A stretch of DNA of 53,983 nucleotides from Candidatus Hydrogenedentota bacterium (GTDB lineage Bacteria > Hydrogenedentota > Hydrogenedentia > Hydrogenedentales > JAEUWI01): contig JAXMOL010000051.1 of assembly GCA_034669905.1 (NCBI GenBank), positions 1 through 53,983 of the forward strand. Direction: 5' to 3'. The position numbers and the translations under genes were made by a program. Under the pieces are notes generated by a model. It saw only the letters and a program-made list of their open reading frames with translations, did no database searches and had not been told where the DNA came from. Of the stretch, positions 44,471-48,302 are shown piece by piece (positions within the stretch are counted from its first letter, which is position 1; each line of letters starts with the position of its first letter).

Positions 44471-45988
44471 CTATTCGGCAAGAAAGGCGAAGAGATCGGC
44501 CTTTTCGAAGACGAACTCCAACCGCACAAGCTTTCCTTCCAACCCGGCCATCGTGCCTTCTTCCCAGGTTACTTTGTGGCGAATGGCATCGGCTTTCAGG
44601 GGCACGCAAGCCTCCCACGTGAGTCCGTTCAACACCTTCCGATCCAGGTCGGTGACCCGTACCTTCATGGAACCATCGGTCGCATCGGCGTTGATGACCA
44701 AATTCCCCCCGGGCCAGACCAGGGGCCGGGTGATGACATAGCTTTTTTGCCCCGTGGGATCGGACTGAATTCCGACAAAACGTTCTTTCCCGAATTTCAC
44801 GAGGCCCAACTGACCCGTACGGTTTTTCTCGTTGTGGTAGCCATCATAGGCTGAATAATAAACCCACCACTCGTCCCCCACTTCAATGACCCGATCGCAG
44901 GCGAAGGTCATGCCGTCATCCCAGGTACCTGCTTCCCCCACGGGGATCATCCGGGGACGGGAAGGCAGCCGTTCCCAATCGAAGCCATCACGACTGAAAG
45001 CCAGTTCCACTTCGATGAGTTCCGGGTCCTCATTGTACTGCTCGAGGAAACCCCAATAGACGCCGCCCTCTTTGAAAACGGGCATGTTATAAAAGCGCCC
45101 CTTATCGGCTTCGTCGGGTAACAGTACGGTCGTGGGCATTCCGTCCCACAGGGACCACAGATCGGCACTCGCAATGCGGGCCATCATCCGGGTATTCCCC
45201 CGCAACAGCGGATCTTTGGAATCGTGGTAGATGAGTTTGTTCCGGTAAAACATGCAGTATTCGTTGCGCACATCGTCATGCACGAGGGTCATGAAGCAAT
45301 CCACCCGATTGGGGATGAGCTTCTCCTGCCGCAGGGCCCAGTTGTATCCGTCTTGCGAGGTAGCGAGATAATGGCCGCTGTCACAGTAGTACATGAGGTA
45401 GGGATTTCCCCGCAACGCTTCTTTGGGCAGCATCCCCAGATTGCGCACCGGCGTACCATTTTCCATCGTACCCGCCGTCTCGGCAAGATGGACGGTCGGG
45501 GCCTTGGCTTCTTTCTCTCCCACCGCGAGGATGTTGGACGCCTTACCCTCAAAGGGCACGAAATCGAAGAGGGGCTTTTCCCAGTGTATCCCGTCGGCCG
45601 ACTCCGCGTAGCAGGTGGTGTACGTGGGGAGACCACCCACCGTGTCTTTCGGGTTCCAGACCTGATAATACAATCGAAAGCGTTTGATGGCAGGGTCGAA
45701 TACCATGGAGATATAGCCCACCCCCGCAGCCTGCTCCCAGGGCTTATCGACGTCGGGGCCCATCAGCGGGGTGGCGATTCGCTCGCCAGGGAAAAAGCGC
45801 TGCGTCACCTTGGCGGATATGGAATCTTCGTTGAAGCGGTTGTCTACGAAGTAATCGTCCACAAAAAACTGGGCCTGCCCCACAGGAAAGGTACGCACCA
45901 GACTACCCCGTGCGTCGGGGTGACTGTCCGCCCCATCGGCACCCAACAGTGCCCCGACTACCATCACTACGCACATTGAAATAGACAT
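44471..45988 (-). CDS. Exported glycoside-hydrolase-like propeller protein, similar in type to 33032-34537
   Basis: GAGGAG RBS; SADGIHWEKP, SQDGYNW, SRDGFDW; ITRPL..NLVINADA C-terminal pattern. Confidence 0.72.
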   Translation of the reverse strand: MSISMCVVMVVGALLGADGADSHPDARGSLVRTFPVGQAQFFVDDYFVDNRFNEDSISAKVTQRFFPGERIATPLMGPDVDKPWEQAAGVGYISMVFDPAIKRFRLYYQVWNPKDTVGGLPTYTTCYAESADGIHWEKPLFDFVPFEGKASNILAVGEKEAKAPTVHLAETAGTMENGTPVRNLGMLPKEALRGNPYLMYYCDSGHYLATSQDGYNWALRQEKLIPNRVDCFMTLVHDDVRNEYCMFYRNKLIYHDSKDPLLRGNTRMMARIASADLWSLWDGMPTTVLLPDEADKGRFYNMPVFKEGGVYWGFLEQYNEDPELIEVELAFSRDGFDWERLPSRPRMIPVGEAGTWDDGMTFACDRVIEVGDEWWVYYSAYDGYHNEKNRTGQLGLVKFGKERFVGIQSDPTGQKSYVITRPLVWPGGNLVINADATDGSMKVRVTDLDRKVLNGLTWEACVPLKADAIRHKVTWEEGTMAGLEGKLVRLEFVFEKADLFAFLAE

Positions 45989-46240
45989 GTTGTCTCCTCA
46001 GGGTTCCCTTTTACTGCACGCCAAACAGAAAACAGCATGGCACGCGACGGCCCCATGACGCAACGGGAGCGTATGACACCTTGCTACTGTGCCACGTCGT
46101 AGACGCGCCGTAGGAGGGCGATGCCGAGGTTAGGCCGTCAGTCTGTTCACCGCCAAAAAAACCTGCTCAATTCGTACGGTCTCTAAATCCAGTCATGAAG
46201 ACAGACACCGGCATGGTGAATACGATGCCTAAACACTTTA

Positions 46241-46412
46241 CGCCTTTGGGTGAGATTAAACCACTGCATACTCAGCGCAGTGGAATGGACTTGGCACGCT
46301 GTATCTTCGACCAATAGGTTTCTGAACCAACAGCAACACAAAAAGGATAGGCACGCAAAGGCGCTAAGACGCAAAGAAGAAAACTCCCCGACCAATGGCG
46401 CCCTATGTCCAC
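46241..46412. repeat. Downstream copy of the ~170-bp diverged direct repeat flanking the GxxExxY gene
   Basis: Aligns ungapped with 46857 onward (offset 616): 100 of 137 positions identical by hand count. Confidence 0.88.
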
Positions 46413-46420
46413 TCTCCGAA

Positions 46421-46804
46421 TTATTCTTCCAATCCGTTCACGATTCGAAAAATCCCATCCTTCATTCGTTCGGCCCCAAAATTCAACAGCAGGCCCAGAC
46501 GCTTATCCATCAGGCGTGCATAGGTCAGTGTCTGCTTCTTATGCACTGGAACGATATGCTCCACGGACTTCAACTCCAGTACCAGCAAGTCTTCGACAAT
46601 GACATCCGCCCGAAATCCCTCGTCAAATTTCAGCCCATCATATTCAATGGGAACGGGCACTTGCCGCTTCGTTCGAATCCCCCGTTTCTTTAACTCGTGG
46701 CACAACACGACTTCATAAATTGATTCCATCAATCCCGGCCCAAGTGCCACGTGAATCTTGTACGATCCATCCACAACCGCCGTTGCCAGTGAGTTTTCCG
46801 TCAT
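46421..46804 (-). CDS. GxxExxY protein (PD-(D/E)XK-like nuclease fold)
   Basis: LGPGLMESIYE signature; FRADVIVEDLLVLELKS; QTLTY..GLLLNFG; GAGG/AGGA RBS. Confidence 0.95.
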   Translation of the reverse strand: MTENSLATAVVDGSYKIHVALGPGLMESIYEVVLCHELKKRGIRTKRQVPVPIEYDGLKFDEGFRADVIVEDLLVLELKSVEHIVPVHKKQTLTYARLMDKRLGLLLNFGAERMKDGIFRIVNGLEE

Positions 46805-46843
46805 TATCCTATCCTCTCACATTTATCTGGTTGCCGCACCACG

Positions 46844-47027
46844 CTTTGCGCCTTCGCGCCTTTGCGTGAGATTAAATTGCCGTGTATTCAGCACACCGGA
46901 CTGAATCCGGCCCTCCGCTTCGCTGACCTACGAGTTCTTAAGCCAACTGCAACACGAAAGGGATTGGCACGCAAAGGCGCTACGACGCAAAGAGAATAGT
47001 CCCCGAGCAACACCACCCTATGCCCAC
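46844..47027. repeat. Upstream copy of the GxxExxY-flanking repeat, with a 25-bp inverted motif pair
   Basis: CTTTGCGCCTTCGCGCCTTTGCGTG (46844-46868) and CACGCAAAGGCGCTACGACGCAAAG (46968-46992) are inverted with 3 mismatches. Confidence 0.88.
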
Positions 47028-47030
47028 CCC

Positions 47031-48302
47031 CTACTCCGGCAGTTCCGGCGGGGTCTCGATAACGGTGGTCTCCCGTCCGTCCCGAATTTTCTCAATTCGC
47101 CATTCGGCCTTCTCCACCGCCTCGTTGCCTTCGTGTATACCGAAGTCGAGGGTAAAGCTGCGGGTCTCCCCGGGCGCCAGTTTGGGAACACGCCCGAAGG
47201 CCCGTTCCACACGGCGGTTAAAGGGATAGCTCATGGCGGGTTCAATACCGGTGACATAGCCATCCGCTTCGGCCACCGTGTTTTTCCACAGGGCGAGATA
47301 GGGCAATTCGGCGATGTTCCAATGGATGGAAGCTGCCCGGGTTCCGGCACGGTTTTTCAATAGCGCACCACACTGGCCGTTCTTATCCGACCAGGGCTCC
47401 ATCAAGTACACTTCCTCAATAAAACCCGGTGTGGGTCCTTCATAGTGCCGATACCGCGAGAGCCCATTGGCAGCATGGGCGTTCATCGGCATGATTTGTT
47501 TCGCCGCCGTTACAAACTCGGCCCCCGCCTCCAGGAGCGGTGCGCCGAAATTGCCGTGGTAGATCAACTGAAACTCCTGGGGGGCCGCACCATGATTGGT
47601 CACTTCATCGTGGATGCGAAAGGTATCACTGCCGGGCTCGGTGGACACTTCGGTGACGAGTCCAAGTTTCGGCCCGAAGAACAACCGTTCATGGACTACC
47701 CCCCGAATAGTAATGCGGTAGGGGGGCGCCCGCTCGACCAGTACTTCCACCTCCGAAGCGGGGATGTTGCCAATCTTTCCGTGGAGCGTGAGATCCATCT
47801 CTGCAGTATCGCCCGTGTTGGTCGTGAACTGATCCCGGCCCGGATGGCCAGCAAACTCGAGGCCGCAGCGCACCATCCACTCGTTGAAGCCCTCCAGCCA
47901 ACCCAGTCCGCCCCGGCTCTCCAGGTCGATAAACTGGGGATGAACCAGCTCCTTGACGGGCGAATCCCAACCGAGCCGCACGTCGCCTTTGGTCACCTGG
48001 AAGATGCTCATGCCCCGGGTAGGTACCACCACAAGCTGCAACACGCCGTTGTCTAAGGTGATGAGCTCGACCCCCTCTTGCTTTCCACCATGGAGCGTCC
48101 TTTTGCTGAGGCTCCACGGTACGCTGGCCGGGGTGATATCTTCGCTGGAAAGTGATATTCCGTCCGTAGCCCGATTTTCCGCGACACTCGTGATGGTATA
48201 GCGAACAACATCACCCTGCGCCTCCACGGCCCCACTCCACCACAATCCCAGTCCAACGGCGATTCCGAAAATACAATGTTTCATGCCTTGCAACTCCTGC
48301 AT
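47031..48302 (-). CDS. Aldose 1-epimerase family protein (DUF4432), probably exported
   Basis: LHGGKQEGV, PTRGM, TLHGKIGN, YHGNFG, YVTGIEP; signal peptide from alternative start 48284. Confidence 0.85.
   Translation of the reverse strand: MQELQGMKHCIFGIAVGLGLWWSGAVEAQGDVVRYTITSVAENRATDGISLSSEDITPASVPWSLSKRTLHGGKQEGVELITLDNGVLQLVVVPTRGMSIFQVTKGDVRLGWDSPVKELVHPQFIDLESRGGLGWLEGFNEWMVRCGLEFAGHPGRDQFTTNTGDTAEMDLTLHGKIGNIPASEVEVLVERAPPYRITIRGVVHERLFFGPKLGLVTEVSTEPGSDTFRIHDEVTNHGAAPQEFQLIYHGNFGAPLLEAGAEFVTAAKQIMPMNAHAANGLSRYRHYEGPTPGFIEEVYLMEPWSDKNGQCGALLKNRAGTRAASIHWNIAELPYLALWKNTVAEADGYVTGIEPAMSYPFNRRVERAFGRVPKLAPGETRSFTLDFGIHEGNEAVEKAEWRIEKIRDGRETTVIETPPELPE

Follow-up and report, generated by a model that had tools for sequence, protein, structure and literature searches.

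The closest described counterparts of the locus reported here combine a nuclease gene with repeats of its own. In REPtrons (REPIN-RAYT or TnpA-REP systems), a small nuclease gene is flanked by its own repeats and each paralog has its own repeat class (PMC3116915, PMC8266576, PMC3733652). In Ssn/SRM systems, a tiny single-domain non-HUH nuclease gene is flanked by cognate, dispersed NTS/SRM repeats (PMC11893778). The Ssn enzyme has 94 residues and a GIY-YIG fold, 71 % of its homologs are repeat-flanked (Chenal et al. 2025, PMC11893778), and SsnA cleaves ssDNA at a position a few bases beyond its own repeat (PMC11893778). For the GxxExxY proteins, which match PF13366, a superfamily survey gives the family as 'Unknown', with multiple transfers (PMC3424549).

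The window, i.e. the whole stretch of DNA that was analysed (53,983 nt), comes from a Candidatus Hydrogenedentota bacterium whose genome is labelled G000; G001–G014 are relatives and C numbers denote G000 contigs. A first-pass annotation had described a lone GxxExxY gene between two ~170-bp direct repeats, which carry a 25-bp motif in alternating orientation, and had drawn a parallel with REPtrons. Our analysis showed that GxxExxY genes are linked to arrays of short heptamers, that heptamer type matches protein clade, that the arrays are dispersed, and that orthologous sites differ by gain or loss, refilling and tandem duplication.

The GxxExxY locus and its protein

The two direct repeats were reproduced exactly as annotated (137 nt gap-free, 100 identities, 26 of 37 differences being transitions), as were the four motif copies and their alternating orientation. 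The copies are real, but the motif is not a single 25-mer: it consists of three CGCAAAG heptamers at period 8. The duplication is likewise genuine but longer than ~170 bp. The duplicated unit is ~190 bp, starts at the stop codon of the preceding gene, runs through both arrays and is present in one copy on each side of the GxxExxY gene. The features are as follows.

46421–46804, minus strand: GxxExxY gene, 127 aa, minimal PD-(D/E)XK nuclease fold (D67, E77-x-K79, Q91-x3-Y95)
46806–46819, minus strand: purine-rich ribosome-binding site, GAGAGGATAGGATA, ahead of the ATG, as read from the sequence
46844–46868, minus strand: inner upstream array, made of CA and three heptamers of the CGCAAAG type with period 8; its head (flank ATCT) faces away from the gene
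46352–46376, plus strand: inner downstream array, in the opposite orientation to the upstream array, head (flank TAGG) facing away from the gene
46968–46992, plus strand: outer array by the DUF4432 stop codon, head-to-head with 46844–46868 and at the same position in relative G007
46236–46252, minus strand: outer decayed array, two units remaining, head-to-head with 46352–46376
46869–46967: spacer of unit A, 99 nt, identical to the unit B spacer at 64 of 99 positions
46253–46351: spacer of unit B, 99 nt
about 46852–47034, plus strand: direct-repeat unit A, which begins at the stop codon of DUF4432 and is made up of flank, array, spacer and array
about 46236–46418, plus strand: direct-repeat unit B, starting directly past the GxxExxY stop codon
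47031–48302, minus strand: upstream host gene DUF4432 (PF14486), context outside the element
44471–45988, minus strand: downstream host gene, 505 aa, signal-peptide-like, context, its DNA 89 % identical in G007

On the gene's strand, the DUF4432 stop codon is followed after 35–40 nt by a reverse array and, 99 nt further on, by a forward array; then come the leader and the gene and, 40 nt past the gene, a second reverse array, which 99 nt separate from the decayed forward array. The nearest array lies about 40 nt ahead of the start codon. The DUF4432 gene closes a run of genes on one strand that also includes sugar-binding, permease and shikimate dehydrogenase genes. The 505-aa downstream protein had no Pfam or NCBIfam match, and no sigma-70-type promoter was found on the strand of the GxxExxY gene. 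The unit A spacer was identical to its G007 ortholog at 57 of 92 positions, and the adjoining DNA was 91–93 % identical. General hypermutation at array heads was not supported as an explanation: head-side mismatch between G000 and G007 was 0.07–0.13, and the 62 % spacer identity is a single case. The transition bias between the two units (26:11) is what an old duplication normally shows and was discarded as a special signal. It was also discarded as a sign of ssDNA damage, with a ratio of transitions to transversions of 0.88 between arrays against 1.49 far from them (G000 versus G007).

An unrelated second repeat with a GTAG tag lies at 46089–46128, 110 nt past unit B; its 16-base core has 11 copies with at most one mismatch in G000, and there are many in G004. 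Head-to-head doublets with polar A-rich spacers of 15–21 nt occur in G005 (L288–L317), in which one end reads TTGG and the other ATC[GT]; both end types also occur, once each, at the window's gene.

Profile searches placed the protein well above the cut-offs of TIGR04256 (128.5 bits, cut-off 35) and PF13366 (PDDEXK_3; 124.6 bits, cut-off 22), the latter being its sole Pfam match, and so upheld its identification as GxxExxY. The PD-(D/E)XK-like fold that had been assigned to it was also supported, with a mean pLDDT of 96 for the AlphaFold2 model and best fold matches to Cas4 and other PD-(D/E)XK enzymes. The top Foldseek match was Cas4 SSO0001 (PDB 4IC1, E 5.9e-4). In a wide structure search all top matches were PD-(D/E)XK folds, every one with Z below 8, and the Cas4-type match was weak, its VIA Z of 7.4 being equalled by other PD-(D/E)XK enzymes; the fold class is therefore clearly assigned, but not the nearest relative. 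The core fold and motifs of RecB-like PD-(D/E)XK enzymes were present (II, D; III, ExK; and QhXXY; motif list from PMC4176176), and conservation among 186 homologs was 99 % for D67, 89 % for E77, 97 % for K79, 93 % for Q91 and 91 % for Y95. A sequence search of solved structures gave no match, and three single-protein scans of viral contigs gave no relative. The TIGR04256/PF13366 family is very large (at least 7996 matches among 7999 scored candidates); among the matches listed, the closest homologs were from Candidatus Hydrogenedentota. Values of dN/dS were 0.04–0.13 in 15 of 21 pairs, the others being saturated, which points to strong purifying selection on the gene.

Association of GxxExxY genes with heptamer arrays

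The first homolog set consisted of 195 loci, 192 of them with a full-length match and 186 unique, and was scored for arrays of the form C-R-Y-N-N-A-K. Arrays were present at 118 of the 186 unique loci. Enrichment in the flanks of homologs, which the first-pass annotation had proposed as a check, was pronounced: among the 87 loci that were long enough, 62 had arrays adjoining the gene and none had arrays about 1 kb away. In a held-out set (100 loci fetched), arrays were found at 67 of 83 unique loci, giving 185 of 269 array-flanked loci in both sets, across phyla. The commonest layout (99 of 185) was that of the window's inner pair, with the gene between inverted arrays, heads outward; the opposite layout accounted for 36 of 185. 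At 15 of 168 loci, flank DNA other than the arrays was present in duplicate on either side of the gene; this was seen in none of 20 shuffles.

Heptamer type followed the protein tree, with 44 changes compared with a mean of 86.5 (minimum 78) for shuffled labels. The co-variation of motif type and protein clade, another check proposed in the first-pass annotation, was found, and kinship alone could yield it. At the level of single residues, T7 occurred with G5 at 42 of 42 loci and then at 10 of 10 held-out loci (52/52 in total), and N94 with T7 at 25 of 25 and then 2 of 2 (27/27); on independent pairs these links were not significant (p 0.125 and 1, respectively). A link for residue 4 (p 0.03, chosen post hoc) failed in the held-out loci and was dropped. 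A residue-to-base recognition code is thus a lead, suggestive only.

Of 41 genomes, 18 contained the CACGCAAAGNCGCNAAG pattern, the highest count being 78 copies; the backwards control yielded one match overall. Exact CGCAAAG-type copies numbered 0–78 (median 19.5) in the ten genomes with a full-length homolog of at least 59 % identity, compared with a median of 0 in the other 31; because the 41 genomes, most of them drafts, are kin, a genome-level test of these counts overstates the difference (p 0.04 within the family). Copy number thus tracks the gene, but some genomes depart from this trend: G011 had 20 copies and a best hit of 29 %, G009 had 10 copies and partial hits only, and G014 had the gene and no exact copy. 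Three tandem 257-bp units with mixed arrays are found in G011 (L209:330–880), which has no close homolog of the window's protein. Taken alone, the link between the GxxExxY protein and the array is very likely to be real.

Within G000 the gene is far from lone, in contrast to its first description. Eight GxxExxY matches were found, seven of them with their own heptamer array type, and each paralog group had its own heptamer and its own spacing. The flank arrays were CGCAAAG (the window's locus), CACGGAA, CACGGAT, CACGAAT (three genes) and a mixture of CACAGAG, CGCAAAG and CACAAAG. The eighth paralog has lost catalytic residues and has an unrelated AAGGAC-type run alongside; this paralog (C52:50252–50590) has neither the E of GxxExxY nor the E of ExK, the run is upstream only, and five similar runs occur elsewhere in G000. 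Another paralog (C28:2534–2989) has a hydrophobic C-terminal extension and lies within five tandem array units of ~284–315 bp. Elsewhere in G000, at C12:15436–16839, two tandem genes that are paralogs of each other (185 and 183 aa) have identical first 26 residues and a near-identical head-to-head doublet ahead of each.

A census of G000 gave 6 CGCAAAG, 77 CACGGAA/T, 94 CACGAAT, 31 mixed, 5 CACAGAG and 13 CACGAAG arrays, with zero matches of any type in the reversed genome, which speaks against chance. These 226 arrays formed 125 clusters, 119 of which were intergenic by our own gene calls; 63 clusters were single arrays and 62 held at least two. Neighbour pairs within 450 nt numbered 101 (3 expected) and differed in family in 60 cases, indicating that the elements are mosaics rather than the ends of one transposon. 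Same-family head-to-head pairs were spaced 19–26 nt in 12 of 15 cases. Gaps between same-strand genes held 81 of the 119 intergenic clusters, while divergent gaps held 16 (31.5 expected). Arrays were present on both sides of only 16 of 5238 called genes, six of which were GxxExxY genes. Paired copies of the window's own motif were also found away from the gene, as the first-pass annotation had anticipated: C20 has a tail-to-tail pair that lacks a gene, and C58 a short doublet in head-to-head orientation.

These distributions bear on the possibility that the arrays are moved by another enzyme (Y1/RAYT or an IS transposase) or by host recombination alone, with GxxExxY as a passenger or a binder, for example a repressor of its own gene. 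G000 has 15 Y1 transposase matches, its CACAGAG (five copies) and CACGAAG (13 copies) families have no adjacent GxxExxY gene, composite ~290-bp elements with a common inner sequence are dispersed in a MITE-like manner, and the position of an array shortly ahead of the start codon would suit a repressor. However, tri-heptamer arrays lay within 600 nt of seven of the eight GxxExxY genes and of none of the 15 Y1 transposase genes, motif type tracks the GxxExxY tree, and the catalytic residues are kept, although neither a passenger nor a pure repressor would require them. We consider this explanation decidedly unlikely.

The inverted arms could alternatively act in RNA, as in an intervening sequence, pairing in the transcript so that the cassette is excised from the mRNA or stabilises it. 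The prevalence of genes between inverted arms, the hairpin folding of the units (z = −3.6 versus shuffles for 46844–46992, and −2.5) and the frequency of arrays between same-strand genes are in keeping with such an element. Head-to-head arms, however, were no more complementary than random arms (7.75 versus 7.27 mismatches, n=12; 1.4 versus 1.3, n=10). The single-array clusters and the mixed-family neighbours, for which full pairing is impossible, also speak against it, Rfam gave no match at the locus, and dispersal and duplication would be left unexplained. An RNA-level role is the least credible of the alternatives considered and highly improbable. Tail-to-tail CACGAAT arms, in contrast, were more alike than random (3.3 versus 5.1 mismatches, n=9, three of these being tandem copies). 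Heptamers were more than 90 % conserved and linkers variable; together with head-to-head arms that are no more alike than random, this favours a protein reading the sequence over base pairing or a hairpin.

Other sequences were observed within the array clusters. Palindromes of the GTCATTCCCGCG...GCGGGAAT type are nested in clusters at C20:119500–119750 and C84:2400–2600; we take these to resemble Neisseria dRS3/NTS repeats, in which case Ssn-type repeats may share these hot spots. A gene pair between array clusters (C54:23935–24644) looks, by eye, like a PIN-domain toxin with a Phd-type antitoxin, and neighbouring unrelated genes flanked on both sides by duplicated array units at C12, C27, C37 and C54 hint at passenger capture.

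Turnover of array sites and a proposed mechanism

Comparison of orthologous sites revealed both empty and filled forms. Where G008 has a 441-bp array cluster, G001 has none and carries a short hairpin instead; the same site has a different filling in G002, and its inner element is flipped in G006. By eye, the fillings of this site resemble one ~35-bp stretch of its empty form at both their right and left edges, and a degenerate ~35-bp direct repeat was seen at one empty/filled site. In G001 a second array site is also empty, four genomes show three different fillings at a third, and of the 12 orthologous gaps that contain arrays in G005 or G008, 11 are array-free in G000. Turnover at all these sites is read without polarity, as gain or loss. 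The search for empty sites that had been suggested was thus successful for array sites, but not for the window's exact site, whose empty form was not found among 14 family genomes. A DUF4432 ortholog (E < 1e-50) was present only in G007, and the G007 contig that carries it begins inside unit A. Among four public runs from three studies, two covered pieces of the gene and the units at 98–99 % identity, and none had a gene-skipping joint; as the contigs are short, this carries no information on excision. An odd joint in these contigs was considered as a possible circle and rejected, because its spacer letters are those of the paralogous doublet at C58:15030.

Most array positions were common to G000 and its nearest relative, G007, indicating that movement is slow. 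Across 22 regions, identity between these genomes was 93 % in arrays, 87 % in the DNA between arrays and 90 % in distant DNA, and gaps made up 7.8 % between arrays versus 0.2 % far off. Tandem copy numbers differed, for example with one versus two GxxExxY genes at C61. Ten close homologs of the window's gene occupied at least five different neighbourhoods, one of which has neither gene nor array in G000. Long 9-bp tandem runs lie near 160900 on C10 and at C16:1–330, a site that in the family relatives G010 and G014 is occupied by a minimal array-gene-array cassette.

An alternative explanation is a domesticated, SsnA-like gatekeeper that recognises and cuts array-bearing ssDNA or incoming DNA and tunes transformation or recombination, the arrays being a by-product spread by general recombination. 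It is consistent with the gene-between-repeats layout, which resembles that of Ssn/SRM (PMC11893778), with the nearest fold being that of Cas4, an ssDNA nuclease (PMC4176176), with strong purifying selection, with the persistence of most positions between G000 and G007 and with the scarcity of arrays in divergent gaps. However, one genome holds eight paralogs with different motifs, some tandem copies vary between close relatives, the gene changes neighbourhood, 4 of 41 relatives had no match, and PADLOC gave no match. Selfish spread therefore fits better than one fixed host job, and we regard the gatekeeper as unlikely, if the strongest of the alternatives.

Array-bounded DNA showed no sign of fixed ends. 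The 33 convergent pairs revealed no short target duplication with a constant offset (mean longest match 4.79 versus 4.47), and homology breaks flanked the arrays both ways, at the head in 13 groups and at the tail in eight. This argues for recombination at arrays and not for fixed-end cut-and-paste. Head-side extents were equal to background, so the exact cut site cannot be read off. Hydrolytic nucleases of the PD-(D/E)XK fold form no covalent intermediate and are not expected to rejoin DNA, which is the reason for the dependence on host repair proposed below.

On balance, we think it probable, from the sequence patterns, that the GxxExxY protein binds its arrays and cuts or nicks beside them, and that host recombination copies the arrays. 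The protein would bind clade-specific heptamer arrays with one protein unit per heptamer, and would cut or nick the DNA a few bases outside the array; host recombination and repair would then copy, duplicate and swap array-bounded DNA. The expected outcome is that gene-less arrays spread and the gene itself moves occasionally. The unit-gene-unit layout of the window may represent one such event, in which a ~190-bp array doublet was duplicated, with the gene between the copies. In a broader and more doubtful version, which we put forward tentatively, GxxExxY proteins would be widespread 127-residue site-specific nucleases with a simple code, mobilising array-bounded DNA through host repair without transposase chemistry, and would constitute a third independent REP-type selfish system. 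In that reading, residues 4, 7 and 8 of the first helix and 90, 94 and 98 of the QxxxY helix would read the heptamer bases, a putative code that is suggestive only.

A candidate substrate can now be named for each family member, which makes function directly testable with short oligonucleotides. The system also accounts for over 200 repeats in G000 and for places where intergenic change is concentrated. Should cleavage be confirmed, GxxExxY proteins would be very small nucleases with many natural specificities, a natural toolbox.

Comparison with known systems

No description of a GxxExxY-plus-array system was found in the full-text literature searched (subscription journals and bioRxiv supplements being outside its scope), and no paper in the full-text search matched the heptamer motif strings. 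The literature passage that names GxxExxY was not about repeats, and the PMC11893778 supplements covered by the search (12 of 14) do not name GxxExxY.

The locus resembles REPIN-RAYT systems in its inverted doublets in intergenic DNA, its tandem flank-doublet-flank units and its nested repeats, in addition to the small nuclease gene with its own repeats (PMC3116915, PMC8266576, PMC3733652). Its repeats are, like those of RAYTs, enzyme-specific, extragenic and often inverted doublets. The parallel drawn in the first-pass annotation holds in that the gene is tied to its own motif, and none of the four computable checks refuted it, but the locus is not a REPtron. The enzyme has a PD-(D/E)XK and not an HUH/Y1 fold, for which neither a covalent link through tyrosine nor strand transfer would be expected, and the 15 matches to the HUH-Y1 transposase family (PF01797) lie elsewhere in G000. 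Its arm consists of three successive heptamers, is not palindromic and has no GTAG tag, whereas RAYT flanks carry GTAG-tagged palindromic REPs. GxxExxY doublets are both head-to-head and tail-to-tail with families mixed, and the gene relocates and duplicates.

The likeness to Ssn/SRM lies in a tiny non-HUH nuclease gene whose flanking cognate repeats are also dispersed, in the flanked share (71 % for Ssn, 185 of 269 loci for GxxExxY) and in co-evolving enzyme-repeat pairs across phyla (PMC11893778). In contrast to the GIY-YIG enzyme (cd10448), which reads a hairpin palindrome, the GxxExxY protein is RecB/Cas4-like and its repeat is a phased heptamer array (PMC11893778). Cleavage activity is established for Ssn (PMC11893778), while GxxExxY is known here from sequence and model. 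Compared with Cas4/RecB-family nucleases (SSO0001, PDB 4IC1; Pcal_0546, 4R5Q), the protein is only 127 aa long and has a single cysteine in place of the four Fe-S cysteines. There are no cas genes and no CRISPR array at the locus, and neither the protein nor its neighbours had a Cas match.

Some terminal inverted repeats of IS elements and MITEs consist of repeated transposase sites. The GxxExxY cassettes are similar in their inverted ends with heads outward, their gene-less derivatives and their near-fixed head-to-head junctions (12/15 at 19–26 nt). Presence and absence at orthologous sites, with dispersed copies sharing a common inner sequence, was observed for array clusters, though not for the window's exact site. 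Unlike IS elements and MITEs, the cassette has no DDE, HUH or serine/tyrosine transposase and no exact ends, and the 33 convergent pairs had no short target-site duplication at fixed ends. The locus is thus separated from REPtrons and Ssn by both fold and repeat type, and the kind of system is known while its GxxExxY realisation is undescribed in the searched literature. Should cleavage be confirmed, enzyme-plus-repeat systems would have arisen at least three times (HUH, GIY-YIG and PD-(D/E)XK). For the last of these, the present locus adds a census of several families that coexist in a single genome, mosaics that mix families, and sites that are empty, refilled or flipped.
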